A stretch of 64,000 nt of DNA from a candidate division WOR-3 bacterium (GCA_027053075.1 JALUEE010000090.1:10392-74391), one strand, 5' to 3'. Counted from the first letter of the stretch, positions 5,414-50,265 are shown. A program made the numbers and translations. Notes: generated by a model from the letters alone, not told the origin.

Positions 5414-5431
5414 GGCTCTATTTTTTAGCTC

Positions 5432-8396: not shown

Positions 8397-8468
8397 TTTT
8401 CAATCACCTCCAGGGCGTTGATTATAAAGCATTCAACCCGTATTTGGAATGTTTTTATGTGCTTTTTT

Positions 8469-8633
8469 AGGGGTGGCCCGCGCACTCTGTGCGCGGGCCA
8501 CCCCTAAAAAAGAGAGACAACTTTTCAATCAGCCCAACATGAGCTATTTGGCGAACTTCACGTTATTTGGGTTTCCAAAAGGAATCCCCCCATCTATCTC
8601 CTCCCCCCGCATAAATTTGTTCGCGGGGGGAGG
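8469..8633. repeat. pair of GC-rich palindromic units in the divergent rpoZ / TPR-lipoprotein promoter region
   Basis: AGGGGTGGCCCGCGCAC-TCTGT-GTGCGCGGGCCACCCCT (8469-8506) and CTCCTCCCCCCGC-ATAAATTTGTT-CGCGGGGGGAGGA (8598-8633). They share motifs with the repeats at 19.3, 28.1 and 50.4 kb. Confidence 0.6.
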
Positions 8634-8862
8634 ATGAAAGGAGAGGGGCCACATATTAAAGTTTTTTGGATAAAATGAGAGAAAATCTAACAAATTTTCC
8701 CTCACATCCAGTGTATGAGGGTATTTGTCTTAGATTATTAATTTTTCAAGAGAGATCCCTGCGTCTATACTTGCTTTGACAAGCAGTAGAAATCATTAAA
8801 TACACTCTATTTGCAAATGCAGATTATGGAGAATCAAATTTTCCAAATCCTTTTGTTTAACC

Positions 8863-8891
8863 TTGACATTGAACGATGAAAGTGATTACAC
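8863..8891 (+). promoter_or_regulatory. putative sigma70-type promoter for the TPR lipoprotein gene
   Basis: TTGACA, 17-bp spacer, then TTACAC/TACACT, with GGAGG 8 nt before the ATG at 8921. Confidence 0.3.
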
Positions 8892-8920
8892 TAATAAAAA
8901 TTTCCCAGGGAGGTAGAAAG

Positions 8921-10204: not shown

Positions 10205-10713
10205 TGTCCGTTAAAGGAAGGGTACTTGTTTTAAATGGAAACTACGAACCTTTAAATGTAAGCACGGTAAAGAGGGCCGTTACCCTTGTTTATCTGGGGA
10301 AGGCCGAGATAGTTCACAGGTATGATGGCGGGGTATTGCGAGCCGAAAGGCTCGCAATACCCCGCCCAAGTGTTATTAAACTCCGCTACTACATCAAAGT
10401 CAAAAGAAGAGAAATACCCCTCACCAAGAAAAATATTCTCAAAAGGGATAACTACACATGCCAGTACTGTGGCACGACTGAGGGGCCAATGACTGTTGAC
10501 CATGTTATACCCAAAAAATACGGCGGAAAAGATACCTGGGAGAATCTTGTTTGTGCCTGTTTTAAATGCAACAACAAGAAAGGGGATAGAACCCCTGAAC
10601 AGGCTGGGATGAAACTACTCAGAAAACCAAGGAAGCCACACTACTTCCTCTTTATCTTAAACGGTGAGAAAATCCCCGACGAAAAATGGAAACCCTATCT
10701 TTTCATGGTTTGA
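10204..10713 (+). CDS. HNH endonuclease (stand-alone, McrA-like)
   Basis: CQYCG...DHVIPKKYGG...NLVCACFKCNNKKGD is the HNH ββα-Me motif. Its start overlaps the TPR gene stop (TAATG). Confidence 0.8.
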   Translation: MSVKGRVLVLNGNYEPLNVSTVKRAVTLVYLGKAEIVHRYDGGVLRAERLAIPRPSVIKLRYYIKVKRREIPLTKKNILKRDNYTCQYCGTTEGPMTVDHVIPKKYGGKDTWENLVCACFKCNNKKGDRTPEQAGMKLLRKPRKPHYFLFILNGEKIPDEKWKPYLFMV

Positions 10714-10752
10714 GAATTTGCAAAGCCTTCCCCTCCATTATTTCGGAACGGG

Positions 10753-11628
10753 TTAGAGGGGTTCTACTGCTGGTTCCTCACCTTCAGCAAAATAGTTGAT
10801 GACTATGCCAGCAAGGATAAAGAGGGAGCCTACTACCTGAAGTGTTTTAACACCTTCACCAAGGATGAAGTAGGCAAGAATTGCAGAGCCAATGGGCTCA
10901 CCAAGAATCAAAACTGTTACGAAGGTCGCAGACGTATGCTTCAGGGCCCAGTTGAAAGACGTGTGACCAATAATCTGTGGAATAAGCGCAAGAAGCACAA
11001 AATATTTGAAAACGTCAACCGGATAACTTTTTATTGGTGTTCCGGTAAGGACGCAAAAAATATAGAGAAACACCGAGGCTGAAAGGTAAACGGGGAACAC
11101 ATACTCAATCAATCCCGCGTGTTTCCTCGTTCTCCTGCCAATCAAAAAATAGATGGAAATCATTATAGAGCCAAGAATAGAAAGGACATCCCCCTTCAAA
11201 TTGGCAAGTCCTACAAGCCTGTCGGAATAGCCCACAATCAGTCCACCTAAAAGTGAAACAAAAATACCAGTCCAGGCAAGCAAAGACGGTTTCTCTTTTA
11301 GGAAAATCCAGGATAGAATACCCACGAAAACCGGGTTCATGGTTACAAGAACTACCGAACTCAGGACGGATGTGTATTTTAGAGAGCTTATCCAGAATGC
11401 AAAGTGTAATGCCATAAAGAGCCCCGCAAGCACCTCGTAGCGAAAATCTTCTCCAAGCCTTCCACCCTTCAGGGCATAGACCGGGGAAATGAAGAGGGTT
11501 GCAAGAAAAAGTCTGTAAAATGCGATAACAAGGGCTGGAACCTGTGGAACCAGTTTGATAAAAATACTTGCAAACGAAACAGATATAACCCCTATTAAAA
11601 CTACGGTAAAAACTTTGAATCTGGACAT
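10753..11628 (-). CDS. EamA/DMT-family transporter
   Basis: 10 TM helices in two EamA-like halves. Confidence 0.7.
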   Translation of the reverse strand: MSRFKVFTVVLIGVISVSFASIFIKLVPQVPALVIAFYRLFLATLFISPVYALKGGRLGEDFRYEVLAGLFMALHFAFWISSLKYTSVLSSVVLVTMNPVFVGILSWIFLKEKPSLLAWTGIFVSLLGGLIVGYSDRLVGLANLKGDVLSILGSIMISIYFLIGRRTRKHAGLIEYVFPVYLSASVFLYIFCVLTGTPIKSYPVDVFKYFVLLALIPQIIGHTSFNWALKHTSATFVTVLILGEPIGSAILAYFILGEGVKTLQVVGSLFILAGIVINYFAEGEEPAVEPL

Positions 11629-17691: not shown

Positions 17692-18421
17692 TTTTCAATT
17701 CCTCCAGAATCTCAGGCAATATTTCTCCTGCCTTGCCCATAAAAGAAAAGTCGGCAATTGCCGTAACAGGTGTTTTTTCAATGTTAACTTCGATTATAAG
17801 AGCTCCCATTTCTTTTGCCTCGAATGGGAGCTGTGCTGCAGGATAGACGACTGCCGACGTGCCTATTACAAAGAAAAATTCGGAATTTCTCGCGATTTCA
17901 AAACTCTTTCTGAGTGCATCGGGTGGTAGCATTTCACCAAACCATACCACGTCAGGCCTGAGAAGTGCACCGCACTCAGGACACCTGGGAAGCTCACCTT
18001 CCCGTATCTCAAAATCAGTGTAAATTTTGCCGCAGCCGGTACATCTGGCACGGAGGAGATTCCCGTGGAGCTCTATAACGTTCTTCGAGCCCGCCTTTTG
18101 ATGGAGATTGTCAACATTCTGAGTGATGGTGTGGAATTCCTCAAAAATGGATTCAAATTCCTTTAAGGTGTAGTGAGCGGGATTTGGTTCAGTGCTTTTG
18201 ACGAGTTTGATACGCCAATTGTACCATTCCCATACCAGTTTGGGGTTTCTCATGAAGGCCTCGGGAGTTGCCAGGTCCTCCGGCCGGTATTTATTCCACA
18301 AACCATCTTTCCCGCGGAAAGTTGGGACGCCGCTCTCACTGGAGACTCCGGCTCCAGTGAGAGCGGCGCCTCTTTTCATTTTACTCAAAATCCTGGCAAG
18401 CTCCCTGATTTTTGGGTTCAT
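17678..18421 (-). CDS. cobB: NAD-dependent protein deacylase (Sir2 family)
   Basis: GAGVSSESGVPTFRG, plus a CxxC...CxxC zinc ribbon. Confidence 0.85.
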   Translation of the reverse strand: MNPKIRELARILSKMKRGAALTGAGVSSESGVPTFRGKDGLWNKYRPEDLATPEAFMRNPKLVWEWYNWRIKLVKSTEPNPAHYTLKEFESIFEEFHTITQNVDNLHQKAGSKNVIELHGNLLRARCTGCGKIYTDFEIREGELPRCPECGALLRPDVVWFGEMLPPDALRKSFEIARNSEFFFVIGTSAVVYPAAQLPFEAKEMGALIIEVNIEKTPVTAIADFSFMGKAGEILPEILEELKNVKD

Positions 18422-18918
18422 TCCCTGCTCCAGTAGACCCTCAAAAGTTTTTGGCTATCAGAAAATGAAAATTCAAGCTCGCCCTGATGGGCCTTATGAA
18501 CCGCCTTGCCAAGCTTTTTGGCAAGGGTTTCAGTAGTGGTCTCGATAACGAGACCATCATCGGTTTCCTTGATACTCATAATTCTTGCAAGGGGATTGCG
18601 TTTCATTTCATATTCGGCCTCATTTTTAATGAGATTCAAAATCTCTTGCTTGTTCTCTTTAACGTAATCACCAACAAGCTCCACAATCCCCAGAGGGTAA
18701 TGATCCTCGATTTTTCTGCATGCCGGGCATTTCTTAAAGTTGACTTTACTTTTGTCTTTCATGAGCTCTTTGTAATAATCCTCATCCCAGAACCACCTTT
18801 TATTGTGGTAAATAAGTTTGCAGGAAGGACAGATTGTCGGGTCTTTGTACTGGGACTTGTCCATGTATGGATCGTGCAACTTCATGTCGTAGAGTTTATC
18901 AATTCTTTTCATCGTCAT
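18418..18918 (-). CDS. hypothetical zinc-ribbon protein (CPSC...CPAC)
   Basis: Two CxxC pairs 27 residues apart. Its stop overlaps the cobB start by ATGA. Confidence 0.5.
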   Translation of the reverse strand: MTMKRIDKLYDMKLHDPYMDKSQYKDPTICPSCKLIYHNKRWFWDEDYYKELMKDKSKVNFKKCPACRKIEDHYPLGIVELVGDYVKENKQEILNLIKNEAEYEMKRNPLARIMSIKETDDGLVIETTTETLAKKLGKAVHKAHQGELEFSFSDSQKLLRVYWSRE

Positions 18919-20537: not shown

Positions 20538-21215
20538 GTGATGGCAGGAAAACTGTTTGTGGTGGCCACACCTATCGGGAATATTAAAGATATAACACTG
20601 CGGGCACTTGAAACCCTTAAGGAGGTTGACCTTATCCTCTGTGAGGACACGAGAAGAACGAGACCTCTTCTCTCGCATTACGGTATTTCAAATGAGCTTT
20701 TATCTTACAACGAGCACAACGAGCGCGAAAGAATACCATACGTCTTGGAGATGCTCGAACAGGGCCATGATGTAGCACTGGTCTCAGATGCTGGTACTCC
20801 CGGAATTTCTGATCCCGGATACCGCCTCGTAAGAGAGGCAAGATTGAGAGACTTTGAAGTCGTCTCGATTCCTGGTCCCTCTGCAATTATTGCGGCCCTT
20901 TCTATTTCCGGTTTACCCACAGACAGATTCGTTTTTGAAGGCTTCCTGCCACGTAAGAAATCAAGGCGTTTAAAACGCCTGGAATTTTTGAAAAAGGAGG
21001 ATCGAACGATTATAATTTATGAGTCGGTTCACCGCATAGAGCGAACCCTCCATGAGATTTTAGAGATTATGGGTGATAGAGAGGTGGCTCTGTGCAGGGA
21101 ATTGACGAAAGTACATGAAGAAGTTAAATTTGGAATGCTAAGCGAAATAATCAAGAAAGGTTTCACGAAAAAAGGTGAGTTTGTGATAGTTTTAAGAGGC
21201 TATGATGAGTCTTGA
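20538..21215 (+). CDS. rsmI: 16S rRNA (cytidine1402-2'-O)-methyltransferase
   Basis: GKLFVVATPIGNIKDITLRALETLKEVDLILCEDTRRT is the RsmI/tetrapyrrole-methylase signature. Confidence 0.85.
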   Translation: MMAGKLFVVATPIGNIKDITLRALETLKEVDLILCEDTRRTRPLLSHYGISNELLSYNEHNERERIPYVLEMLEQGHDVALVSDAGTPGISDPGYRLVREARLRDFEVVSIPGPSAIIAALSISGLPTDRFVFEGFLPRKKSRRLKRLEFLKKEDRTIIIYESVHRIERTLHEILEIMGDREVALCRELTKVHEEVKFGMLSEIIKKGFTKKGEFVIVLRGYDES

Positions 21216-21786
21216 CGCTCTGAAGAAGAAAGGGAAATCTTCTTTAAGGCCCTTTGTTAATCTCATGATTGCTCTCAAGGTGTCCCCGGACACTTTGAGT
21301 GTGACGGGATTCCTTATAACTCTAATCATCGGTTATTTCTATGCTCGTGGAGAGCTTGTACTGGGTGGAATTTTTATACTCGTGTCCGGATTGTTTGATG
21401 CCATTGATGGAGAGGTGGCAAGGGCAACAGGGAAAAGTTCAAGAAAAGGGGCACTTCTGGACTCAAGCATAGATAGAGTATCTGAATTCTTTATCTTTGG
21501 CGGCCTTTTGTACTATTTTAGGGCTAACACCTATGCGTTTGTCATCCTCTACCTTTCACTTGTTTTTTCTATACTCGTGAGTTACATGAGAGCTCGTGGC
21601 GAAGGACTTGGGTATTCTGCCCGTTCGGGCTTGATGGATCGGTCTGGAAGGATGATATATTTATTCTTTGCGTCACTTCTTGGGGAGAGGACGTTTATCT
21701 CCCTCATGACTGTATTTATGGTTCTGACATTTGCCACTGTGGTGGAAAGGTGGTTGATTTTGAGAAAAATTCTTTCTGAAAAATAA
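21202..21786 (+). CDS. CDP-alcohol phosphatidyltransferase family protein (candidate phosphatidylinositol-phosphate or DIPP synthase)
   Basis: [12 protein letters not shown]...G...D motif and 5-6 TM helices. Overlaps rsmI by 14 nt and lies 11 nt upstream of the inositol-phosphate synthase gene. Confidence 0.75.
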
Positions 21787-21797
21787 GGAGGTTAGAA

Positions 21798-22895
21798 ATG
21801 GGAGAAATCAGAGTTGCGATTGTTGGTGTTGGTAATTGCGCATCAAGTCTGGTGCAGGGCGTTTACTATTATAGAAATGCCCAGCCCGGTGATTTTATTC
21901 CGGGAATTATGCATGTGATTTTCGGTGGGTATCACATCAATGACATTAAATTCTGTTGCGCGTTCGACATCAACAAGACAAAGGTAGGAAAGGACCTCTC
22001 AGAGGCTATTTTTGCTTACCCCAACAACACATACAAGTTTACAGATGTTCCCAAAATGGGAGTGAAAGTTTACCGCGGAATGACCCATGACGGAATAGGC
22101 AAATATCTTGCTGACATTATCGAGAAGGCACCTGGTCCTACAGACGATGTGGCAAAAATCCTCAAAGAAGAAGGTGCTGACGTCGTAGTGAACTTCCTGC
22201 CTGTGGGCTCAGAAGAAGCCACAAAATGGTATGTTGAGCAGGCAATCCAGGCTGGAGCAGCGTTTGTTAATGGAATTCCGGTGTTTATCGCAAGCTCCGA
22301 ATACTGGAGCAAGAGGTTTGAGGAAGCCGGACTTCCTGTGCTCGGAGACGATATTAAGTCTCAGGTCGGTGCGACCATTGTCCACAGGACACTGGTACAG
22401 CTTTTCCTCGACAGAGGAGTAAAGCTTGAGAGAACCTCTCAGCTCAATGTAGGTGGAAACACTGACTTCCTCAACATGCTCGAGAGGGAAAGACTTCACT
22501 CAAAGAAGATTTCCAAGACTCAGGCTGTAACATCACTCCTACCCTACGACATTGGTGAGGAGAATGTGTACATTGGCCCATCAGACTATGTGGCATGGCT
22601 CAAGGACAGAAAGTGGGCATACATGAGACTTGAAGGTAGGACTTTCGGAGACGTGCCTCTGAATATCGAGCTCAAGCTTGAGGTCTGGGATTCGCCCAAC
22701 TCTGCAGGTGTAATGATAGATGCCATCAGAGCTGCAAAGATTGCAAAGGATAATGGACTTAAGGGTGCAATAATCGAGCCTTCAAGCTACTTCTTCAAGT
22801 CGCCACCGAAGCAGTTCCCTGACTACAAGGCACGTGCACTGCTTGAGGACTGGATAAAGAAGCACACGGAGAAGAAGGAAGAAAAGAAGAAGTAA
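21798..22895 (+). CDS. myo-inositol-1-phosphate synthase (archaeal/bacterial type)
   Basis: [23 protein letters not shown]-terminus and Lys-rich C-terminus; 365 aa. AAGGAGG RBS. Confidence 0.85.
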
Positions 22896-30509: not shown

Positions 30510-30720
30510 AACGAAACTCCCTCCCTTCCACTGGAAGGGAGGGCTGGGGTGGAATGGGGGAACAAAATTTCGAAATAATTCATTTTCCCACTCTCCCCTG
30601 GCCTCTCCTTCCTCGAGAAAAGGAGGGAAATTTACGCTGCAATTATCATTGATGGGATTCCGTTAGAAAATGTGGCAATCAAAATTCAGATTTTTCGAAC
30701 AAGCTTGAACCGATGTTTAT
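30510..30720. repeat. intergenic mosaic repeat copy C (long form)
   Basis: CCCTCCCTTCCA-CTGG-AAGGGAGGG perfect palindrome, GGGGTGGAATGG, CTCCCCT...GGAGGGAAATTTAC, GATTCCGTTAGAAAATGTGG and GATTTTTCGAACAAGCTTG blocks. Paralogous to 36484-36745. Confidence 0.7.
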
Positions 30721-30803: not shown

Positions 30804-32042
30804 ATGCACAGGGAGACGCGGAAAATCTTTGAGAATTTCTCCTGGATGTTACTCGGTCAGGTGGCCGGTCGGGTATTTGGCTTCTTTGCCATCATCTTTC
30901 TTGCCAGGAGACTCGGTAAGAGTGCCTATGGTATGTGGGCTTTTGCATTCGCACTGCTTTCCTACGGCATGCTCCTAACGGATTTCGGACTCAGCACCTA
31001 CGGGTTGATCGAGGTTTCAAAAGACAGAAAAGCACTGAAAACACTCCTCGGAGATATCCTTTCCATCAGGCTTGTAATAGCATTTTTTCTACTCATCATC
31101 ATTGTTCCTTTCTCGCGGATTGTCCCAAAGCTCAGCTCAATGTCAGGCCTCTTATTCTTAACCTTCCTTAATCTCATCCCCTTTGCCCTCTCCTTAGATT
31201 GGGCGTTCAGAGCGCTGGAAGATATGAAGTTCGCTGCACTCTGGACGTTTATTTTTAATCTTTTATTCTTTTTGCTGATAATTTTTGTGGTTAGAAGTCC
31301 GTCAGATATTCTAAAAGTCCCATCCTCAAGATTCTTTTCACTTCTTATTGCTTCTGGTCTTCTTATTTACTTTCTCTGGAAAAGATACCCTGAGCTCTTT
31401 GCCTTCAATGTAAATTTCAGCAGATGGCCTGCCATTATGAAGGTTTCAGTTGTCCTTACGGCTTCCTTTGTCATGATTAAAATTTACTACAACATTGATG
31501 TACTGATGCTTGGATTTTACAGGACAATGAAGGAGGTGGGAGTTTACAGCGCAATTTACAACTTTGTCCTCGCCCTGTCAGTGGTGAGATTTTCGCTTCT
31601 CTATGCTGTGCAGCCTACACTTTCCCGGATTGAGCAGATACCCTGGAAGGATTATTCGAAAAAATTGTGGAAATTCGAGACAGTCTCCATAGCCATTGGG
31701 GTTCTTTTGTATCTTTTTGTTTTCGTTCTGGCAGGACCTATCATAAAGATTTTTTACGGTGGTAAATACACAAGTCCCGAAACAATAAAACTTTTAAGAA
31801 TTCTCATCAACGCCAACCTTATAATGTTCATAAACCTTGTTTTCCCCTCTCTTTTGATCATTGTGAAGAGGGAAATGCTCTACTTCTGGGTTACAACCGC
31901 TGGAGCGACCACAAACTTTTTATTAAATCTGTATCTGATACCGAGGTTTGGGTACTTTGGGGCTGCATACACGACTGTGCTCTCAGAATTTGTTGTATTT
32001 TTGCTGTCTTTTGTTTTATACTACCGCCTGATTAGACCATGA
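30804..32042 (+). CDS. MOP-superfamily (Wzx-like) polysaccharide/lipid-linked oligosaccharide flippase
   Basis: 412 aa with 12-14 TM helices and a Wzx-like N-terminal basic patch. Confidence 0.65.
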   Translation: MHRETRKIFENFSWMLLGQVAGRVFGFFAIIFLARRLGKSAYGMWAFAFALLSYGMLLTDFGLSTYGLIEVSKDRKALKTLLGDILSIRLVIAFFLLIIIVPFSRIVPKLSSMSGLLFLTFLNLIPFALSLDWAFRALEDMKFAALWTFIFNLLFFLLIIFVVRSPSDILKVPSSRFFSLLIASGLLIYFLWKRYPELFAFNVNFSRWPAIMKVSVVLTASFVMIKIYYNIDVLMLGFYRTMKEVGVYSAIYNFVLALSVVRFSLLYAVQPTLSRIEQIPWKDYSKKLWKFETVSIAIGVLLYLFVFVLAGPIIKIFYGGKYTSPETIKLLRILINANLIMFINLVFPSLLIIVKREMLYFWVTTAGATTNFLLNLYLIPRFGYFGAAYTTVLSEFVVFLLSFVLYYRLIRP

Positions 32043-32758
32043 AAGCATTTATTCTTGCAGCGGGAAAGGGTACACGACTTATGCCATTGACAGCCGAGAT
32101 TCCGAAGGCCCTGCTTGAGTTGAAAGAAGGCCTCACTCCACTGGATTTTCAGCTGAATCTACTCACCAAGTATGGGTTTTCCCCGGCGGATATTTTCATT
32201 ATCGGTGGTTATCGTTTTGAAAAACTCAAGAGATACGGTGAAATTGGAGTCAATCTTGTTTTTAATGAGAAATACGACAGTTTGAACAATATCTACACTT
32301 TTCTGCTTGCTTCAAATTTCACAAACGGTGAAGATTTTTTAATTTTGAATGTTGACACAATTTTTGATGAATCATTGCTCGATGAGCTTATAAAAACACC
32401 AGGAAGTGCAATGGTGGTGGATAACGTCAAGATTCTTGGTGATGAGGAAATGAAGGTCAAGATCGCTGATGGAAGAATTGTGGAGGTCAGTAAATTCATA
32501 CCACCTGAGAATGCCCATGGTGAATACATCGGGATTTCAAAATACTCGCACTCAGAGGCCACAGTGATATTCGACAAAATCAGGGATATGCTTGAAAATG
32601 GCGAGGGGCACAGATGGTATGAGGACGCAATAAATCTTGTTCTCGACAGGGTTGAGATATCACCTGTTTTCACAGAAGGTAAAAAGTGGATTGAAATTGA
32701 TACGCCGCAGGATTTAGAAATAGCGCGGGGGCTTGTTCATGATTTACAGAACGATTAA
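32039..32758 (+). CDS. LicC/IPCT-type alcohol-phosphate cytidylyltransferase (nucleotidyltransferase fold)
   Basis: MKAFILAAGKGTRLMPLT..PKALL, LVFNEKYDSLNNIYTFLL and WIEIDTPQDL are nearly colinear with S. pneumoniae LicC. ATGA overlap with the flippase gene. Confidence 0.8.
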   Translation: MKAFILAAGKGTRLMPLTAEIPKALLELKEGLTPLDFQLNLLTKYGFSPADIFIIGGYRFEKLKRYGEIGVNLVFNEKYDSLNNIYTFLLASNFTNGEDFLILNVDTIFDESLLDELIKTPGSAMVVDNVKILGDEEMKVKIADGRIVEVSKFIPPENAHGEYIGISKYSHSEATVIFDKIRDMLENGEGHRWYEDAINLVLDRVEISPVFTEGKKWIEIDTPQDLEIARGLVHDLQND

Positions 32759-33776
32759 CATTCCGGTTTTTCTGGAAATCGGTGAGGGTATCCTTGAAGA
32801 CTTTAATGGAATTTTAAAAAAACATAATCTCTCCTTTTCTCGTCCATTGATTCTCACAGGTGAGAAAAGCTCAAAAGTTCTTGCAGGATTTGATTTTTTT
32901 AATAGATTTGAAAAGCTATTCATCCGGGAAAACGACCTTGAAACTTTGCTCGTGATAAAAAGTGACATTTACGGTAAAGGTTACGATCTGTTACTCGCGT
33001 GCGGAGGTGGAAGGGTAATTGATAGTGGAAAGTTTCTCTCCCTCGAGACTTCCCTGCCACTTGTTGCTATTCCAACAATCTTATCGAGCGACAGCGTGTC
33101 ATCGCCAATAAGTATTCTTAAAGATAACCATGGAACGAGGAGCATGGGGACAGTTATGCCAATGGGGGTTTTAATTGATGTACAGATAATCAGGACTTCG
33201 CCCGAGATTTACCTAAAAGCGGGATTGGGTGACCTTATGTCCAATCTGTCATCTGCTTATGACTGGGAGCTTGCTTACAAACGAGGTTTTGAAAGAATCG
33301 ATAACTTCTCGAGGATGCTCGCCCTTTTGCCCGCTCAGCGGATTCTTCTCAAAACCGATGGGTACAAGGGGTTAAAAGACGAGGAGCTACTTGCTGATCT
33401 TGCCGAAGGACTGGTGCTCAGCGGAATTTCAATGGCTATAGCCGGGAGTTCAAGGCCTGCCAGTGGAAGTGAGCACAATATCAGCCATAGCCTTGACAGG
33501 ATACTCGGGCAGCAAAAGAAACTTCACGGGCTGCAGGTAGGACTTGCTACCGTTCTTACCCTAATTCTTCAGGGGAATAGAGAGCAGGCCGATGTGCTTT
33601 CGCAATTGTATAAGAAGACTGGCTTCCCTTTGAATTTAAAGGAGCTTGATATCTCCTGTGAAGATTTCGAGAAGGCCCTTGAAATAGCACCAGGCCTGAG
33701 AGACAGATATACTGTCCTTAATGAAATCCCTATTGAGGAGCTGAAAGAAGTCGCAAGAGCCAGACTCTGCAAGTAA
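32733..33776 (+). CDS. egsA: sn-glycerol-1-phosphate dehydrogenase (EgsA/AraM family)
   Basis: GGGRVIDSGK, PTILSSDSVSSP, GLGDLMSNLSSAYDWELAYK and SSRPASGSEHNISHSLD match the archaeal G1PDH motif set; 347 aa. Overlaps the cytidylyltransferase gene by 26 nt. Confidence 0.8.
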   Translation: MFMIYRTINIPVFLEIGEGILEDFNGILKKHNLSFSRPLILTGEKSSKVLAGFDFFNRFEKLFIRENDLETLLVIKSDIYGKGYDLLLACGGGRVIDSGKFLSLETSLPLVAIPTILSSDSVSSPISILKDNHGTRSMGTVMPMGVLIDVQIIRTSPEIYLKAGLGDLMSNLSSAYDWELAYKRGFERIDNFSRMLALLPAQRILLKTDGYKGLKDEELLADLAEGLVLSGISMAIAGSSRPASGSEHNISHSLDRILGQQKKLHGLQVGLATVLTLILQGNREQADVLSQLYKKTGFPLNLKELDISCEDFEKALEIAPGLRDRYTVLNEIPIEELKEVARARLCK

Positions 33777-33780
33777 CCAC

Positions 33781-34698
33781 ATGTTTGATCCCATTTATCT
33801 TGAAGCCTACGAGACGGGCAGGCTAAAGGAAAAAGTGGAAGAGGCCCTTGAGTCTCTGAGTTCATGCGTAGCCTGTCCGATTGGATGTCGGGTGAATAGG
33901 CTCGAAGATGAGATTGGTGATTGCGGGGTTGGGAGATTTGCAATTCTTTCTTCCTATGGACCTCATTTCGGGGAAGAATCTGTGCTTGTCGGTTACCACG
34001 GCTCGGGTACGGTGTTCTTTGGAGGATGCAACCTCAGATGTGTTTACTGCCAGAACTATGATATAAGTCAGCTCAGATGGGGTAGAGCAGTGGACGCTAA
34101 AACCCTTGCAGGTGTGTTCCTCGAAATTCAGGATATGGGTTGTCATAACCTCAATCTCGTGAGTCCCACCCACGTGGTTCCCCAGATCCTCGAAGCACTT
34201 TTGATCGCTGTGGAGAAAGGTTTCAGGCTACCTCTTGTTTATAATACAGGTGGATATGACCACATAAGGACGTTGAAATTGCTCGACGGAATTGTTGATA
34301 TTTACATGCCCGATACGAAATATGGCGATTCTAAAAAGGGTTTAAAGTACTCAGGGGTTAAAAACTACTTTGAGATCAATAAGAGAAACCTGAGAGAAAT
34401 GCATCGGCAGGTAGGAGATTTGAGGATTGAAGAAGGTCTTGCCGTCAGAGGACTCCTAATTCGGCATCTTGTTTTACCGAACAATATTTCTGACTCTGAG
34501 AAGGTCATCGATTTTATAGCCGATGAACTCTCAAAAGATAGCTGGCTGAATCTCATGGATCAGTATTATCCTGCCTACAGAGCGATGGAGTACCCTGAAC
34601 TGTCCCGAAGGATTACACGGAGAGAATACTTCAGGCTTGTGGATTATGCATTAAACAAGGGAATTCACAGAGGAATTCCGTTTGATCATGCCCGATAA
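33781..34698 (+). CDS. radical SAM protein, PflX/COG1313 (AmmeMemoRadiSam-type) family
   Basis: CNLRCVYCQNYDIS cluster plus an N-terminal extra Cys motif SCVACPIGC. Confidence 0.7.
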   Translation: MFDPIYLEAYETGRLKEKVEEALESLSSCVACPIGCRVNRLEDEIGDCGVGRFAILSSYGPHFGEESVLVGYHGSGTVFFGGCNLRCVYCQNYDISQLRWGRAVDAKTLAGVFLEIQDMGCHNLNLVSPTHVVPQILEALLIAVEKGFRLPLVYNTGGYDHIRTLKLLDGIVDIYMPDTKYGDSKKGLKYSGVKNYFEINKRNLREMHRQVGDLRIEEGLAVRGLLIRHLVLPNNISDSEKVIDFIADELSKDSWLNLMDQYYPAYRAMEYPELSRRITRREYFRLVDYALNKGIHRGIPFDHAR

Positions 34699-36483: not shown

Positions 36484-36745
36484 AACTCCCTCCCTTCCGC
36501 TGGAAGGGAGGGTTGGGGTGGAATGGATAAATTTAATGATATCACTGTATGTTCTGAAATATCACTCCATTAGATATTCTAAATCTAAAGATTGTTAATC
36601 TTACCCCCATTCTCCCCTAACCCCTCCTTCCCCGGGGAAGGAGGGGAAATTTACCGACTGGTTTGCGATAATTAATGGAATTTTAAGAATCTTAAAAAGT
36701 GGAACTTAAATCGAGGATTTTTCGAACAGGCTCGTAGGAGGGGAG
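36484..36745. repeat. intergenic mosaic repeat copy D (long form with ~80-nt insertion)
   Basis: CCCTCCCTTCC-GC-TGGAAGGGAGGG, GGGGTGGAATGG, CCCTCCTTCCCC/GGGGAAGGAGGG 24-nt perfect palindrome, GGGGAAATTTACC and GATTTTTCGAACAGGCTCG. Confidence 0.7.
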
Positions 36746-45397: not shown

Positions 45398-47068
45398 ATG
45401 GATCGTCCGTGGCTGAAATTCTACGATGAAGATGTACCACGGAGTATTGATTATCCCAGAATGCCCATCTATGGCATTCTCGATGGTTCAGCAGAAAAGT
45501 TCCCCTCCAAAACGGCTTCCATATTCTACGGTAAAAAGCTCACTTACAAAGAGCTAAAAGAATTATCCGATAGATTTGCAAATTCCCTCAAAAAACTTGT
45601 CATTGGAAAAGGAGACAAAGTAGCACTTCTCCTGCCAAACTTCCCGGGTTACGTTATTGCCTACTTTGGTGCTTTAAAATCCGGCGCTGTCGTTGTCCCA
45701 CTGAATCCCCTTTACACAGAGAGTGAGCTTGAGTTTCACTTTAACGATTCCAGTGCGGAGACCGTTGTTACAATCCCTATGTTTGTTGAAAAGGCAGCCG
45801 CACTAACGAAAAAGACACCACTCAAGCGTGTCATCGTTTCCTACATTGCTGACTTTTTACCATTTCCCCTCAGTTTTGTTCAGAAACTCAGAGAAAATCC
45901 ATATGTGAAGCGGGCAAAGAAGACCATTTCAGGTGAGCTTCTCAATATGAAAGACATGATTTCGAGCCCTGCCACTGGTTTTAAACCTGCACAGGTGAAT
46001 CCCGATGAGCTTGGAATTCTCATTTATTCGGGAGGTACAACAGGTGTGGCAAAGGGGATAATGCTCTCTCACTACGCAGTTGTGGCAAATGCCCACATGA
46101 TCAAAGCCTGGGGTCACCTTGATGAAAACGAGAGGATGCTGGCAGTGCTGCCGTTTTTTCACGGCTACGGCATGAATGTAACCATGAACGCAGCACTACT
46201 CTCGGGCATGTCCATTGTAATGCTGCCCAGATTCAGCGCGCGCGAGATGGCAAAGACCATTGATAAATACAAACCCACGCAGACCGCAGTTGTTCCCACC
46301 ATCCTCGTTGCACTTTCCGCTGTCAAAAACGTGGAAAAGTATGATTTTTCAAGCCTCAAGGCCATTTGGGTTGGAGCTGCCCCGCTGACTGCTGCCATCA
46401 AAGAGAATTTTGAGAAGAAAACCGGTGGACGTGCCATAGAGGGTTATGGCCTCACCGAGGCAGTCACTGCAATAATGGCCAATCCCATGAAGGGAAAACA
46501 CAAGGTAGGAAGTATCGGACTCCCATTCCCTGATGTTGATGCGAAAATCGTTTCACTTGATGGAACAAAAGACCTTCCATCCGGTGAGGTGGGAGAGATT
46601 GCACTAAAAACCCCGACCGTGATGCTCGGTTACTACAATAGACCCGAGGAAACTGCAAAAACCATTAAAGACGGCTGGCTTCTCACTGGGGATATTGGTT
46701 TTATGGACGAAGAGGGTTATTTTTATATAACCGACAGGAAAAAGGACCTCATCATTGTTGGTGGATTTAACGTTTTCCCGAGGGAAATTGACGAGTTGAT
46801 TTATAAGCATCCGAAGGTGAAAGAGGGAATAACTGTTGGCGTGCCTGATGAATTTAAGGGTGAGAAAATAAAAGTCTTTATCGTGCTCAAAGAGGGTGTT
46901 ACAGCCACGGCAGAAGAGTTTATTGAATATTTCAAAAAGCACCTTGCCCCCTACAAAGTGCCAAGTGAGGTAGAATTCAGGAAAGAGCTTCCAAAGAGTG
47001 CAATTGGAAAGATTCTTCGAAGGGTACTAAGAGAGGAGGAAATCAAAAAGCGTGGTAAAAATACCTAA
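45398..47068 (+). CDS. AMP-forming acyl-CoA ligase (FadD/long-chain-type)
   Basis: YSGGTTGVAKG AMP-binding P-loop, GYGLTE, TGDIGFMDEEGYFYITDRKKDLI and PKSAIGKILRR. Confidence 0.85.
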   Translation: MDRPWLKFYDEDVPRSIDYPRMPIYGILDGSAEKFPSKTASIFYGKKLTYKELKELSDRFANSLKKLVIGKGDKVALLLPNFPGYVIAYFGALKSGAVVVPLNPLYTESELEFHFNDSSAETVVTIPMFVEKAAALTKKTPLKRVIVSYIADFLPFPLSFVQKLRENPYVKRAKKTISGELLNMKDMISSPATGFKPAQVNPDELGILIYSGGTTGVAKGIMLSHYAVVANAHMIKAWGHLDENERMLAVLPFFHGYGMNVTMNAALLSGMSIVMLPRFSAREMAKTIDKYKPTQTAVVPTILVALSAVKNVEKYDFSSLKAIWVGAAPLTAAIKENFEKKTGGRAIEGYGLTEAVTAIMANPMKGKHKVGSIGLPFPDVDAKIVSLDGTKDLPSGEVGEIALKTPTVMLGYYNRPEETAKTIKDGWLLTGDIGFMDEEGYFYITDRKKDLIIVGGFNVFPREIDELIYKHPKVKEGITVGVPDEFKGEKIKVFIVLKEGVTATAEEFIEYFKKHLAPYKVPSEVEFRKELPKSAIGKILRRVLREEEIKKRGKNT

Positions 47069-48173
47069 GAGGCACGAGGTTTGCAGGAAATTTAAGGAGC
47101 AGGGGGGAAAGGTTGCGGCAGTATTGCCCATCCATTATCCGAGAGCACTTTTGAGGGCTTTTGATATACTACCTGTGGAAGTGTGGGGACCTCCTCAAGT
47201 GGACGTAAGTTATGGAGGTGCACACCTGCAGCCCTATGTTTGCTCGATAGTTCACAATGCCCTTTCGTTTCTCAAAACCGGTGGGCTGGATGAAACCGAC
47301 ATTATCATTGTTCCGCACACGTGTGACTCGCTTCAGGGATTTGGAAGCATTCTGCTTGATTTTGTTAAGCCCAGACAGCCGGTTTTTCCAATTTATTTGC
47401 CACGCGGAAAAAGGTCGGAGGATGTTGAATTTCTGGTGAATGAGTTTAAATCTCTATACAGGGGGCTCGAAAAAATTACCGGCAAAAGCCCGATGGATGA
47501 TGAGATGCTTAAGAGAATCGAAATTGAAGAGGAGGCCGATGCAAAGCTAAAAGAGCTTTATGAGATCAGGGGTGAATTTTCCTTTGAGTCAGGAAAGACC
47601 AAAAGCAGGTCAAGCAAGGGAGAAGCCCTTTCAACCTACGATTTTTACAGGGTTGTGCGGGCAAGAGAATTTTTACCAGCCGAGAAATTTATTGAGATTG
47701 CTGACGAGGTGATTTCGGAATATTCATTTGTAAGAGATGGTGTGCCTGTGATACTTTCGGGGATAGTTCCAGAGCCCATGGAGGTTTTGAATGCCATTGA
47801 AGAAGCCGGGGGATTTGTCGTTGTAGATGACCTTGCCTGCTGTGGCAGACGTCTTTATGGACGTGGAAAATCGAGTGAGCCATTGAAAAGGATGGCCGAA
47901 AGGATTATTTTCGGGCCACCTGATGTGACACGAGGGAATTTGATTGAGGAGAGGTTTGAACATTTGAAGTATCTTGCTGAGGTCACAGGGGCACGCGGTA
48001 TCATTTTCTATACTGTAAAGTTCTGCGAGCCCGAGTTATTTGATTTACCTGACCTGAAGAATATGCTGAAGAGTGCGGGGGTACCTTCGGTGCAGGTTGA
48101 GATCGATATCGGTGACCCATTACCTCATCAGACTATCACGAGATTGACTGCGTTTTTAGAGGTGCTGGCATGA
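47052..48173 (+). CDS. 2-hydroxyacyl-CoA dehydratase / benzoyl-CoA reductase family subunit (HgdB/BcrB-like), GTG start
   Basis: [26 protein letters not shown] and [11 protein letters not shown] patterns of the HgdAB/BcrBC fold. Overlaps the ligase by 17 nt. Confidence 0.7.
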
Positions 48174-49492
48174 GTTTGAAAGACCATCTCAAATATTACT
48201 GGAATGTGAAGCTTGTTGGGAGTGCCTATCTCAGGTGGCAGAGGTGGCAGGCAGAGCGGAAGCCTCGAATTCCGCGAAATTGGAGAACGAATATAATCGC
48301 ACCACCGCTGAAGATCAGTGCCCGCACAAAAGAGCTGATCTCAAGGCATTATCTTGAGGGAAGGTATGCGAATGGGCATAAGCCTGTTGCGTGGGTTACA
48401 TCTGGTGGGCCGGTCGAAATCCTTCAGGCTCTTGGCTTTTATGTTTTGTATCCTGAAAATCACGGCGCGCTCTGTGGAGCGCGCCGTTACGCTCTTGAAC
48501 TCTCAGAAGAGGCCGAAAACTACGGTTTCTCCCAGGATATTTGCTCATACGCGAGGACGGATATAGGGAGCATGCTCTCGGGGAAGACACCGATTGGAAG
48601 ACTTCCAAAGCCTGATCTTCTGCTTGCATGCACAAATATTTGTCAGACAGTGCTTTTCTGGTATCGAGTGCTTGCAAAGCATTTTAACGTTCCGATTATC
48701 CTGATTGACACACCATTCGTTTACAAAGATGCACCGGAGCACGCTATTGAATACGTGAAAAAGCAGCTCGAGGCTTCGATTCCGGTGGCCCAGAGGGTTG
48801 CAAAGAAAAAGCTTAGCTTTAAAAAATTAAAGGAAGTTGTGAGGCTCAGCCGTGAGGCTTCTGAGCTGTGGCTCGAGATTATGTATAGGGGAAAGGCAAA
48901 GCCTGCCCCGATCTCGGTTTTTGACCAGTTCATACACATGGCTCCAATTGTGGAGATGCGGGGTAAACCCGAAACGGTGGATTTTTACGCAGCAATGCTC
49001 AAAGAGGTTGATGAAAGAATCAAAAAGGGTATCGGAGCAGTGAAGAATGAGAGGAAAAGGCTGCTCTGGGATAATTTGCCCATCTGGTATAAACTGAGAT
49101 TCCTTGCGGAGTATCTTGGTGAGCATGGGATTTCGGTGGTTGCTTCTACTTATACCATGGCATGGGGTGAGCTTGCCCCATTGATTGACCCGGAAAGACC
49201 CATTGAATCAATGGCAAAGACTTATATTTACCCAATTTTGAATCGTGGAACAGGCTACAAGTTGCAAAAGATGAGGGACATGGTTGAGGAATTTGACCTT
49301 GATGGTGCAATTTTGCATTCTGACCGCTCGTGTAAGCCTTATTCTATCGGACAGGTGGATCAGAGGAACAGATTGATCAGTGAATACGGGATACCTGCTC
49401 TTATTTTAGAGGCTGATCATAATGATCCCCGGGCATTTGCAGATGAGCAGGTAAAAGCAAGACTTGATTCATTTATAGAGATGCTGGAATGA
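48170..49492 (+). CDS. 2-hydroxyacyl-CoA dehydratase family subunit (HgdA/BcrC-like)
   Basis: [32 protein letters not shown] and [10 protein letters not shown] Cys ligand context. ATGA overlap upstream. Confidence 0.7.
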
Positions 49493-50265
49493 TTAAAGCA
49501 ATAGGAATTGATGTAGGTTCAACAACGGCAAAGATTGTAGGAGTTAACGAGGGTGGGGACTTTGTGTGGAGCTATATTGAACCTGCCGACCCAAGGGTAG
49601 AGGACCAGGTGGAGAGGTTTCTCGAGAAGGTCAGGGAAGTGGCAGGTTCCATTGAAGGAATTCCCATAGTGGCAACAGGTTATGGAAGAAACCTTGTCCA
49701 TCAGGCAACGAAGAAGGTGACAGAAATCACCTGCCATGCGCGCGGGGTTTTCAAGCAGCTTGGCCATGGTGGAACGCTTGTGGATATTGGTGGACAGGAC
49801 AGTAAGGTGATTGTAATAGGGCCGCATGGAGAGGTGGTGGATTTCACCATGAACGACAAGTGCGCCGCAGGGACAGGAAGATTTCTTGAAAATACTGCCG
49901 GAAGGCTCAGGGTGAAGCTCGAAGAGATGGGGAGTGTGGCCCTCTCTGCTCCTGAAGAGGTGAAAATTTCCAGTACGTGTACGGTTTTTGCTGAATCTGA
50001 GATTATTTCAATGATTGCTCATGGTGTGAGGGTTGAGCCCATTTTAAAGGGGCTTCACAGGTCCCTTGTGAAGCGAATTGTTGCCATGATTAGAAGTGTG
50101 GGGCTGGTGCCTCCATTGATGCTGTCCGGGGGAGTAGTAAAAAACCCGGCAATAAGGAAGATGATTGAGGAAGAAACGGGAGAGAAGGTAATTTTACCCG
50201 AGCACCCGCAGTTCATGGGCGCCTACGGCGCCGCCTTGATAGGATTGAAGTTGGGGAAAGGGTAG
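49489..50265 (+). CDS. CoA-substrate-specific enzyme activase (BadF/BadG/BcrA/BcrD/HgdC ATPase)
   Basis: [14 protein letters not shown]-terminal ASKHA motif and [12 protein letters not shown]; ATGA overlap. Confidence 0.85.

Follow-up and report, generated by a model that had tools for sequence, protein, structure and literature searches.

Gene organization of the cassette

The window, meaning the entire 64,000-nucleotide stretch of DNA from a candidate division WOR-3 bacterium that was analyzed, carries a three-gene cassette followed closely by a fourth gene on the same strand:

30804-32042, + strand: Wzx/MOP-family flippase, 412 aa (PF01943), the first gene of the cassette
32039-32758, + strand: LicC/IPCT-like nucleotidyltransferase (NT), 239 aa, a predicted CTP:glycerol-phosphate cytidylyltransferase (PF00483)
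32733-33776, + strand: G1PDH-family dehydrogenase of the NT-coupled clade, 347 aa when read from TTG 32733 (PF13685, NF002022)
33781-34698, + strand: radical SAM protein, 305 aa (PF04055)

The Wzx, NT and G1PDH open reading frames are real and translationally coupled, and every reading frame and motif quoted in the initial annotation was located where it had been placed. The Wzx/NT junction is an ATGA, as had been described, with the NT start overlapping the Wzx stop. The NT and dehydrogenase genes also overlap, but the reported 26 nt holds only if translation begins at TTG 32733. Judged from the sequence, ATG 32739, which sits 8 nt past a GGGGG run, is the more likely start; the N-terminus that it gives (MIYR...) agrees with those of homologs, and the protein would be 345 aa long, as is homolog P0001, with an overlap of 20 nt. 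The radical SAM gene, absent from the initial annotation, begins 4 nt after the dehydrogenase stop codon and is probably cotranscribed with the cassette. Its product matched PF04055 at 44.5 bits, and its NCBIfam matches to activases of glycyl-radical enzymes were weak. Among the homolog loci (numbered with the prefix L), this gene is kept at the same position in L001 and L002 and is missing from L004, L089 and remoter loci; thus, it was not regarded as a core part of the cassette.

The closest genome match was a WOR-3 MAG with 65% identity and identical gene order. The host is bacterial, as the window encodes YidC with a periplasmic domain, YidD, CoaBC and UDG; TatC, Lnt and DnaB were also recognized from translations read by eye. 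A reverse gyrase gene in L089 indicates a thermophilic lineage, and the host is a hot-vent bacterium.

The flippase matched PF01943 (Polysacc_synt) at 100.7 bits (cutoff, 28.2) across residues 10 to 276 and PF13440 at 39.6 bits, with no equivalog-level NCBIfam match found in the profile search. The gene order Wzx-NT-G1PDH recurs in L001, L004 and L089, while in L007 Wzx lies ahead of the pair. The NT matched PF00483 at 42.7 bits (cutoff, 21.2) and has the N-terminal nucleotide-binding motif (L)xAAGxGxRL...PK, reading MKAFILAAGKGTRLMPLTAEIPKAL. Its best PDB match was LicC (1jyk; 54 bits, confined to the N-terminal half), with the PntC fusion 6pd1 and the IPCT 2xme also matching, and these closest solved relatives work on small phospho-alcohols or phosphonates. 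The top NCBIfam match was Arch_glmU (70 bits), with IPCT/DIPPS at 58.6 bits, all far under the respective cutoffs. The name given by NCBI to this family is "phosphocholine cytidylyltransferase family protein."

Family and active site of the dehydrogenase

The dehydrogenase matched PF13685 at 73.7 bits (cutoff, 28). Its score against the NCBIfam G1PDH model NF002022 was 225.9 bits, approximately three times that for GldA (76.4 bits) and below the equivalog cutoff of 413. Foldseek searches with an AF2 model (pLDDT, 93.1) returned as top matches 3ce9 (TM score, 0.86), the G1PDHs of M. jannaschii (approximately 0.80) and Pyrobaculum (0.79), and AraM 9h4x (0.78), with G1PDH-type structures ranked by E value above all GldA entries. 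Residues D167, R241, H248, H252 and H265 are invariant in all 83 aligned homologs, the window protein included; D167, H248 and H265 are presumably the metal ligands. The G1PDH-specific motif SSRPASGSEHxxSH is also kept. By profile, fold and active-site motifs the 347-aa protein is therefore a member of the G1PDH family, but it is not a canonical EgsA.

The "full motif set" previously attributed to this protein holds for the D/H/H triad and SSRPASGSEH but not for a near-invariant Ser, which is replaced by Ile at position 128. All 11 NT-coupled proteins have Ile, Val or Thr here, where 71 of the 74 remaining homologs carry Ser; this Ser, within S-P-x-V/A-S, is also shared by 3ce9 and by the solved G1PDHs of M. 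jannaschii and Pyrobaculum. In this segment the NT-coupled clade resembles glycerol dehydrogenase (GldA, S-V) and not G1PDH (V-S), the window protein having S-I. Substrate binding may consequently differ from that of G1PDH, and because the change from Ser to Ile or Val is glycerol dehydrogenase-like across the NT-coupled clade, both substrate and stereochemistry are inferred. One haloarchaeal protein with a G1PDH annotation provides a precedent, having turned out to be a glycolaldehyde reductase (PMC9700705).

In a neighbor-joining tree the window protein grouped with WOR-3 sequences, a Thermococcus paralog and a sequence from a DPANN archaeon with 100/100 bootstrap support. When the tree was rooted at its midpoint, this group fell on the bacterial side, separated from approximately 39 archaeal EgsA sequences, and the label of "archaeal-type" EgsA is hence not supported. 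Comparison with GldA, which had been suggested as a check, favored G1PDH by profile and fold. In Thermococcus and Pyrococcus the NT-coupled-clade G1PDH is an extra copy, with relatives in the set carrying a separate canonical-type EgsA. Overall, the window protein shares with archaeal EgsA and Bacillus subtilis AraM its family, fold, putative metal-ligand triad and SSRPASGSEH motif; it differs in clade, in its score below the equivalog cutoff, in Ile 128, and in its partners, where a cytidylyltransferase and glycan genes stand in place of GGGPS/PcrB.

Pairing of the NT and G1PDH genes across genomes

An NT gene directly adjoins a G1PDH-family gene at 11 distinct loci in Bacteria and Archaea (L001 to L007, L013, L030, L088 and L090). 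The two genes lie on the same strand, with spacing that ranges from a 22-nt overlap to a 13-nt gap, and both gene orders exist (L007). At approximately 70 other homolog loci, which include all canonical archaeal EgsA genes, no adjacent NT was found, bar a weak 27-bit match to the NT profile 71 nt downstream in L074 (Thermotogaceae); the coupling itself is seen in none of the 74 homologs outside the NT-coupled set. The identities of NT and G1PDH proteins to their respective counterparts were strongly correlated (r = 0.95; 66 pairs; Mantel P of approximately 2e-4), a codivergence implying that the two genes travel together, also from one domain to the other.

The remaining partners of the pair are variable and comprise TagF-like enzymes or CDP-alcohol phosphotransferases, Wzx flippases, GT4 glycosyltransferases and TagGH-like ABC transporters. 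Wzx lies beside the pair in the WOR-3 loci and L007. A TagF-like gene adjoins the pair in Thermococcus sp. 9N3, where AglB, GT4 and GT2 genes are also present; the Pyrococcus pair neighbors two CDP-OH_P_transf genes and three GT4 genes; and the Streptomyces pair neighbors genes for DUF5941, a CDP-alcohol phosphatidyltransferase, a glycosyltransferase and an ABC transporter. Loci L006, L088 and L090 have CDP-OH_P_transf genes next to the pair. The cassette, the window and the 11 NT-coupled loci yielded neither a kinase nor a Gtp3-like phosphotransferase. Next to 35 other bacterial homologs no recurrent lipid gene was found, and their recurrent partner was a HAD phosphatase.

Other relevant genes in the window

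Two overlapping genes near the end of the window encode the candidate transferase pair:

61950-63170, - strand: TagF/TarF-like CDP-glycerol glycerophosphotransferase, 406 aa (PF04464, 236 bits)
60800-61996, - strand: GT4 glycosyltransferase, 398 aa (PF00534, 88.2 bits; PF13439, 67.6 bits)

The TagF-like assignment made in the initial annotation was borne out by a PF04464 score well over the cutoff of 22.1, although the NCBIfam TarF score (137.9 bits) was below the equivalog cutoff of 550. The GT4 gene overlaps the TagF-like gene by 47 nt; the pairing of a TagF ortholog with a GT4 is kept in L092, L093 and L095, and in L094 a polyprenyl synthetase gene lies directly upstream of the TagF-GT4 unit. 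The two genes are 28 kb from the cassette and lie beside it in no WOR-3 relative examined. Neither TagD nor any other candidate source of CDP-glycerol for the TagF-like enzyme was found in the window. That the TagF/GT4 pair at 60.8 to 63.2 kb is the partner of the cassette is a tentative assignment, at somewhat less than even odds.

The gene at 5432-6346, noted earlier as a UbiA-family prenyltransferase, is present and is the only one of its family, but it encodes MenA (TIGR00751, 113.6 bits; cutoff, 102.15). As previously stated, no GGGPS/PcrB gene is among the annotated open reading frames, and DGGGPS and CarS likewise were not found in the 64 kb. An inositol-phosphate synthase (MIPS) and a CDP-alcohol phosphotransferase (CDP-AP) are encoded at 21202-22895. 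The CDP-AP scored best as an (archaetidyl/phosphatidyl)inositol-phosphate synthase, at 152 and 121 bits versus 56 bits for DIPPS; the archaetidylinositol-phosphate synthase score was slightly over that for the bacterial PIP synthase, both being under their cutoffs.

Proposed function and alternatives

The reading that we prefer, with a probability of roughly 55%, is that Wzx, NT and G1PDH form a module for the precursor supply and the export of a glycerol-phosphate surface glycopolymer, either teichoic-acid-like or a lipid-linked glycan decorated with GroP. Drawing on NAD(P)H, the dehydrogenase would turn DHAP into glycerol phosphate, most probably as the sn-1 enantiomer that its family makes, and the LicC/IPCT-like NT would then presumably join this product to CTP, giving CDP-glycerol (CDP-1-Gro). 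A glycerophosphotransferase, for which the TagF-like enzyme of the window with its paired GT4 is a candidate, would move GroP onto a polyprenol-linked glycan, and Wzx would flip the lipid-linked product. The same three genes had been proposed as one unit that activates glycerol phosphate with a nucleotide for use in an exported glycopolymer, and this proposal is supported by the pairing at 11 loci, the codivergence and the CDP-alcohol-using neighbors, which also make the alternative given in the initial annotation, a "teichoic-acid-like polymer in a diderm," the stronger of its two readings.

The components of this reading differ in strength. What is shown comprises how the genes are arranged, which families they belong to, the conserved pairing and codivergence of NT and G1PDH, and the presence of CDP-alcohol-using enzymes beside them; DHAP as the substrate, the sn-1 configuration, CTP as the nucleotide, which of the two steps comes first and which transferase is the cognate one are inferred. 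A CDP-activated small polyol phosphate destined for a surface glycoconjugate is the probable product of the cassette. As no kinase is present in any cassette, the product of the reductase must already be phosphorylated. That it is sn-G1P is favored only slightly: where housekeeping enzymes already supply a bacterium with G3P, a dedicated DHAP reductase would be needed only if the other enantiomer is to be made, but the second G1PDH in Thermococcus and Pyrococcus would be redundant if its product were G1P, which counts against this identity. Further points against the preferred reading are the NF002022 score (226 against 413), the change at position 128, the glycolaldehyde reductase precedent and the 28-kb distance to the TagF/GT4 genes.

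The logic proposed here is like that of the wall teichoic acid enzymes TarI/TarJ (CDP-ribitol) and TagD (CDP-glycerol from sn-G3P). It is established that a reductase and a cytidylyltransferase provide a CDP-alditol donor for TagF/TarL-family transferases acting on a lipid-linked polymer (PMC8262930). Those systems use an MDR reductase and an IspD-like or TagD-type enzyme, whereas the cassette has a G1PDH/Fe-ADH_2 reductase and a LicC-like NT, and its predicted enantiomer is sn-1.

The gtp1-gtp2-gtp3 genes of pneumococcal serotypes 15 and 23 suggest a different small-polyol route, which we consider unlikely for the cassette. In type 23F the layout is very similar (wzx-wchX-gtp1-gtp2-gtp3): a dehydrogenase (Gtp1) and an NTP_transferase-type nucleotidyl transferase (Gtp2) are encoded beside Wzx and a glycerol phosphotransferase (WchX), and glycerol phosphate is added to a Wzx-dependent surface polysaccharide. 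By analogy, the dehydrogenase could act on an unphosphorylated or other carbonyl, for example on dihydroxyacetone, which pneumococcal Gtp1 is reported to reduce to glycerol, and the donor would be CDP-2-glycerol or another CDP-polyol; alternatively, the NT might act first, forming CDP-dihydroxyacetone from CTP and DHAP, with the nucleotide-linked ketone then being reduced. The glycerol dehydrogenase-like pocket segment created by Ile or Val in place of Ser 128 and the precedent of a G1PDH-annotated paralog with another substrate fit such a route. However, the pneumococcal pathway, which yields glycerol-2-phosphate, requires the Gtp3 phosphotransferase, of which, as of a kinase, no counterpart was found in the cassette, window or 11 loci, while cytidylyltransferases require a phosphorylated substrate. 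In addition, the protein shares SSRPASGSEH, including the invariant Arg and His, with true G1PDHs.

Synthesis of a compatible solute or head group, in which CDP-glycerol is turned into a phosphodiester such as glycerophosphoinositol or diglycerol phosphate by a CDP-alcohol phosphotransferase, as in Archaeoglobus and Aquifex, is less probable still. The lineage is thermophilic, the CDP-AP and MIPS of the window might take part, and CDP-OH_P_transf genes flank the pair at the three loci given above. NT homologs in A. fulgidus and Geoglobus adjoin genes for CDP-OH_P_transf proteins of 177 to 179 aa, and A. fulgidus has a Gro1P-preferring GCT activity for which the gene has not been identified (PMC8262930). 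The IPCT/DIPPS and Af2299-type systems of Archaeoglobus (CDP-inositol, CDP-glycerol), the latter a small CDP-alcohol phosphotransferase using a soluble CDP-alcohol (PMC4634129), likewise join a LicC/IPCT-fold cytidylyltransferase with a CDP-alcohol phosphotransferase, but their products are solutes and not exported polymers. The NT of the window is neither fused nor adjacent to such an enzyme, being coupled to the dehydrogenase and, as in all close relatives, translationally to Wzx; the CDP-AP is 10 kb away in another operon and scores best as a lipid enzyme; and elsewhere the pair is accompanied by exporters of the ABC or Wzx type and by GT4s.

A genuine phosphocholine (LicC) or inositol-1-phosphate (IPCT) cytidylyltransferase with an Fe-ADH-family neighbor of unrelated redox role is very improbable, since the NCBI family name, the LicC structural match, the IPCT/DIPPS match and the MIPS gene are offset by scores far under all cutoffs, by the absence of LicA, LicB and LicD, and by a strict pairing and codivergence with a G1PDH-family enzyme across two domains that would be left unexplained. 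Least probable of all is the lipid-divide angle of the initial annotation, with G1P feeding ether or ester lipids of archaeal stereochemistry in a bacterium, for although the protein is of the G1PDH family, the CDP-AP leans slightly to archaetidylinositol-phosphate synthase and GGGPS/DGGGPS are known from FCB-group bacteria (PMC6431249), none of GGGPS/PcrB, DGGGPS and CarS was found in the 64 kb, the UbiA gene of the window is MenA, the clade is separate from canonical EgsA, defined by cytidylyltransferase coupling and glycan genes and an extra copy in Thermococcales, and a HAD phosphatase, not a lipid gene, recurs beside the other bacterial homologs. On balance, the most likely product of the pair is an activated donor of glycerol phosphate that serves a teichoic-acid-like surface polymer and not archaeal-type membrane lipids.

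Implications and a related Streptomyces region

The donor CDP-sn-1-glycerol is considered probably absent from bacteria (PMC8262930), and the NT-G1PDH pair may be, at a little under even odds, a mobile, cross-domain two-gene route to it. In that case the glycerol phosphate of some surface polymers, in Bacteria and Archaea alike, would be "archaeal-handed" and would come from a nucleotide donor and not from phosphatidylglycerol. The stand-alone Archaeoglobus NT homologs would then be the long-sought Gro1P-preferring glycerol-phosphate cytidylyltransferase, and many of the "bacterial G1PDH" matches that enter phylogenomic work on the lipid divide would belong to glycan synthesis or metabolism and not to lipid synthesis.

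A syntenic "teichoic acid" region of Streptomyces contains araM and genes for a nucleotidyltransferase, a CDP-alcohol phosphatidyltransferase, a GT2 and TagGH; it was reported as synteny only, with neither mechanism nor stereochemistry proposed (PMC13118837). Its proteins share approximately 30% identity with those of the window, and an ABC transporter takes the place of Wzx, but the NT-G1PDH-like core, with a 13-nt overlap (L088), likewise lies in a context of glycopolymer export.

Structure of the cassette and its surroundings

The three open reading frames (ORFs) assigned to the cassette by the initial annotation are present in the window as described, with a radical SAM gene beginning 4 nt beyond the stop codon of the third.

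Genes of the cassette and the gene downstream
30804-32042, forward strand: Wzx flippase (PF01943, 100.7 bits)
32039-32758, forward strand: NT, a LicC/IPCT-like nucleotidyltransferase (PF00483, 42.7 bits)
32733-33776, forward strand: Fe-ADH_2 protein, the G1PDH-family dehydrogenase (best NCBIfam model, NAD(P)-dependent glycerol-1-phosphate dehydrogenase)
33781-34698, forward strand: radical SAM protein (PFL-activase/PflX-like)

The flippase stop codon and the NT start codon overlap as ATGA. The 26-nt overlap originally given for NT and the dehydrogenase holds if TTG at 32733 is the start codon; however, the ATG at 32739 is located 8 nt past a GGGGG run and agrees with the N-termini of homologs, making a 345-aa dehydrogenase and a 20-nt overlap more likely. 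A search for exact matches to the 347-aa ORF gave none, probably because gene callers start at ATG 32739. The radical SAM gene was retained in this position only in L001 and L002, two comparison loci, and no glycyl-radical enzyme was found near it.

GC content across the cassette was unremarkable, thus giving no compositional sign of recent transfer. Promoter scanning returned 8 sites where 8.4 were expected, i.e., not above chance, and for the upstream spacer of 600 nt Rfam gave only spurious miRNA-like matches, on a long hairpin. A palindromic structured repeat of approximately 115 to 160 nt occurs twice in the window (30515-30632 and 36485-36640), with no copies expected by chance, flanking 6 kb of sequence in which the cassette, the radical SAM gene, IMPDH, and tRNA-Gln/Glu are located. 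The repeat, with core CCCTCCCTTCCNCTGGAAGGGAGGG, has a predicted RNA fold of -54.9 kcal/mol (z, -3.8). The repeat, which may be a REP/MITE-like element, was missing from all 97 comparison loci.

The dehydrogenase belongs to the G1PDH family but not to canonical EgsA

Using NCBIfam models, the dehydrogenase scored 225.9 bits as G1PDH (cut-off, 413) versus 76.4 bits as glycerol dehydrogenase. Its best solved sequence relative was 3ce9 (173 bits), a Clostridium structural-genomics entry labeled "glycerol dehydrogenase," followed by the G1PDHs of Methanocaldococcus jannaschii (153 bits) and Pyrobaculum (124 bits) and AraM of Bacillus subtilis (82 bits), with true GldA enzymes at 64 bits or less. 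Fold comparison based on an AlphaFold model (pLDDT, 93.1) ranked the solved relatives in the same order. From an alignment of 83 G1PDH-family sequences, drawn from 80 genome loci together with metagenome loci, it was found that D167, H248, H265, H252, D120, and K100 are invariant, as is the G1PDH-specific motif SSRPASGSEH, and all are present in the window protein. The first three residues are presumed to be the metal ligands.

A neighbor-joining tree (344 columns, 100 bootstraps, midpoint root) grouped the window dehydrogenase with two WOR-3 sequences, a protein of Thermococcus sp. 9N3, and one from a Nanobdellati (DPANN) archaeon, with 100% support. Relative to the midpoint root, this clade is on the bacterial side, away from approximately 39 archaeal EgsA sequences. 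Profile, fold, and motifs place the protein in the G1PDH family, but the earlier label of archaeal-type EgsA is not supported. As Thermococcales metagenome-assembled genomes (MAGs) in the set carry a separate canonical-type EgsA (33 to 39% identity to the window protein), the copies in Thermococcus sp. 9N3 and Pyrococcus kukulkanii are paralogs.

NT and the dehydrogenase form a widely distributed gene pair

Among more than 80 loci with a G1PDH-family gene, an NT homolog adjoins that gene in 11 distinct places, the two genes sharing a strand and either overlapping by up to 22 nt or lying no more than 13 nt apart. No other NT adjacency was seen in this set, save a weak 27-bit match to the NT profile 71 nt downstream of the G1PDH-family gene in Thermotogaceae (L074).

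Places in which NT and the dehydrogenase are coupled
WOR-3 lineage group: the window; L001/L002; L004/L089 (WOR-3)
Archaea: L003 (Thermococcus); L090 (Pyrococcus); L005/L091 (DPANN); L007 (Nitrosopumilales; gene order reversed)
Other Bacteria: L006 (uncultured); L013 and L030 (Gammaproteobacteria); L088 (Streptomyces plasmid)

Pairwise identities of NT and of the dehydrogenase were correlated (r = 0.95; 66 pairs; Mantel P of approximately 2e-4), indicating that the pair has been inherited and transferred as a unit, also between Bacteria and Archaea. Where a third partner was identified it varied, but it was always a CDP-alcohol user or a gene for glycan assembly or export.

Third partners of the pair
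Thermococcus: TagF-like Glyphos_transf, beside AglB, two GT4s, and one GT2
Pyrococcus: two CDP-alcohol phosphotransferases and three GT4s
L006: CDP-alcohol phosphotransferase
Streptomyces: DUF5941, CDP-alcohol phosphatidyltransferase, glycosyltransferase, and ABC transporter
WOR-3 loci and L007: Wzx flippase

The Streptomyces pair was found by plasmid tblastn, which also returned homologs in C. butyricum and N. vulgaris with uninformative neighborhoods. NCBI annotates its members as "phosphocholine cytidylyltransferase family" and "iron-containing alcohol dehydrogenase family." In the searchable literature, the association is reported only as unannotated synteny, in a 2026 survey that labels the Streptomyces region "teichoic acid," with araM and tagGH, and proposes no mechanism (PMC13118837). 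In the DPANN locus (L005/L091, 9295-11041), the pair has no further partner and is flanked by SecDF and a family-B DNA polymerase.

Position 128 distinguishes the NT-coupled proteins. All 11 have Ile, Val, or Thr at this position, whereas 71 of the 74 other homologs have Ser, the three exceptions all being WOR-3 loci. Over this segment, S-P-x-V/A-S is found in 3ce9 and in the solved G1PDHs of M. jannaschii and Pyrobaculum; the window protein reads S-P-I-S-I, resembling the S-A-L-S-V of glycerol dehydrogenase. The equivalent residue lines the nicotinamide/substrate pocket of Bacillus glycerol dehydrogenase, and substrate or cofactor handling may thus be altered. One haloarchaeal protein with a G1PDH annotation has proved to be a glycolaldehyde reductase without DHAP activity (PMC9700705); membership of the family alone leaves the substrate unfixed.

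A predicted route to CDP-1-glycerol

The solved relatives closest to NT are LicC (54 bits), a PntC fusion, and Archaeoglobus IPCT, which cytidylylate small phospho-alcohols or phosphonates. In the proposed route, the dehydrogenase would reduce DHAP to glycerol phosphate, NT would convert this with CTP to CDP-glycerol, a glycerophosphotransferase would place GroP onto a polyprenol-linked glycan, and Wzx would flip the GroP-bearing lipid-linked product. Three inferences favor sn-G1P. The protein is of the G1PDH family and retains its motifs; no kinase was found in the NT-coupled cassettes, so that the reductase product would already have to be phosphorylated; and a bacterium should have no need of a DHAP reductase for this purpose unless the enantiomer is one left unsupplied by housekeeping metabolism.

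A candidate for the transferase step is encoded approximately 28 kb from the cassette, where the initial annotation had correctly placed a TagF-like gene.

TagF/GT4 pair
60800-61996, reverse strand: GT4 glycosyltransferase, overlapping the next gene
61950-63170, reverse strand: TagF-like protein (PF04464, 236 bits)

Proteins 100% identical to the TagF-like one are encoded in GCA_015489415.1 and in metagenome scaffolds labeled REYS20-1. No TagD, kinase, or second NT was found in window ORFs of at least 150 aa, in small ORFs, or at the end of the window, occupied by an MmgE/PrpD-like gene; apart from the cassette NT, no gene able to supply the TagF-like enzyme is present in the window. In relatives the TagF/GT4 unit never adjoins the cassette (in one, a polyprenyl synthetase gene immediately precedes the TagF ortholog), yet the two co-occur in one metagenome with matching divergence. 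For these reasons we regard the partnership only as a tentative one, a little less probable than its converse.

Supply of CDP-alditols to TagF-type transferases by a reductase and a cytidylyltransferase has classical precedent in TarIJ, TagD, and Gtp1-3; the new elements are the families to which the enzymes belong and the sn-1 donor that is predicted. Among characterized systems, the pneumococcal CDP-2-glycerol locus wzx-wchX-gtp1-gtp2-gtp3 is the closest in layout. That system requires the Gtp3 phosphotransferase, which the cassette lacks. For glycerol-phosphate polymers, CDP-glycerol is thought to be the source of sn-3 units, and phosphatidylglycerol the sole source of sn-1 units. Bacteria are considered probably to lack free Gro1P and CDP-1-Gro (PMC8262930), a presumption that this DHAP reductase-cytidylyltransferase module, if correctly read, would overturn; it would also be an enzyme source for enantiopure CDP-1-glycerol.

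Stand-alone NT homologs (37 to 41% identity) were identified in Archaeoglobus fulgidus, A. neptunius, and Geoglobus, divergent beside a CDP-alcohol phosphotransferase of 177 to 179 aa, a candidate glycerophosphodiester synthase. Those at L084/L085 (A. fulgidus-like, 6001-6735) and L086/L087 (Geoglobus) share 37 to 38% identity with NT. PMC8262930 cites Rodrigues et al. 2017 for a Gro1P-preferring glycerol-phosphate cytidylyltransferase in lysates of A. fulgidus, which is not assigned there to a gene. Members of the NT family are candidates for encoding it.

Archaeal-type lipids and other contexts of bacterial G1PDH homologs

Bacterial G1PDH homologs have been cited in the debate on mixed or archaeal-type bacterial membranes, and the initial annotation had raised this "lipid divide" reading for the cassette, pointing to a UbiA-family gene. 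That gene is MenA (TIGR00751, 113.6 bits; cut-off, 102.15), and its link to archaeal lipids was rejected. The reported absence of GGGPS from the window was borne out, DGGGPS and CarS were likewise not found in the 64 kb, and the dehydrogenase clade is defined by cytidylyltransferase coupling, leaving the lipid reading unsupported. Its sole remaining hint is a 194-aa transferase.

Inositol-related genes
21202-21786, forward strand: CDP-alcohol phosphotransferase (194 aa), immediately upstream of the next gene
21798-22895, forward strand: myo-inositol-1-phosphate synthase

The transferase leans toward archaetidylinositol-phosphate synthase (152.5 bits; cut-off, 180) over bacterial PIP synthase (121.1 bits; cut-off, 170), with both scores below cut-off. 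In this WOR-3-like bacterium, the two genes have the look of a pair for inositol lipids or inositol phosphodiesters.

A Pfam census of 112 genes flanking 35 other bacterial G1PDH homologs revealed no recurrent lipid gene. The recurrent neighbor was a HAD-family phosphatase of approximately 220 aa (PF12710/PF06888), at 10 or more loci, and PcrB/GGGPS coupling of these homologs was rejected; the upstream gene of this size is the phosphatase. The pairing suggests a route from DHAP via G1P to glycerol, or another nonlipid role. Two context classes of bacterial homologs, NT-coupled (glycan) and HAD-phosphatase-coupled, call for caution in reading G1PDH as lipid potential. A same-strand gene of approximately 220 aa lies directly upstream of the homolog at L014, L017, L020, L022, L031, L036, L038, L043, L052, L062, L064, and L078, in Alphaproteobacteria, Elusimicrobia, Verrucomicrobia, and others; the census gives totals, and HAD assignment at each locus is by gene size and position. 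In L010 (WOR-3 UBA6260, 5216-11062), a homolog lacking NT overlaps a gene for a 653-aa membrane protein and is preceded by a hexapeptide acetyltransferase and two GT4 genes, indicating a glycan context there too.

Host lineage and other genes in the window

The host is a bacterium, encoding YidC with a periplasmic domain, YidD, CoaBC, and UDG; TatC, Lnt, and DnaB were read from translations only. The closest genome match was a candidate division WOR-3 MAG (65% identity, identical gene order). Reverse gyrase is encoded at L089 (1-2805, reverse strand), on a 76-kb contig that also carries the cassette's closest relative among long contigs, indicating a thermophilic WOR-3-like lineage.

A 166-aa protein (18418-18918, reverse strand) matched the NMD3 family (PF04981, E = 1.2e-9), which is odd in a bacterium, as this ribosome export adaptor is normally eukaryotic or archaeal. 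From translations only, 45398-50265 (forward strand) encodes an acyl-CoA ligase, two subunits resembling 2-hydroxyacyl-CoA dehydratase/benzoyl-CoA reductase, and a BcrAD/HgdC-like activase. A split NAD synthetase is located at 3413-5100 (reverse strand), where the genes for a nitrilase-type glutaminase (4267-5100) and the synthetase (3413-4270) overlap by 4 nt.
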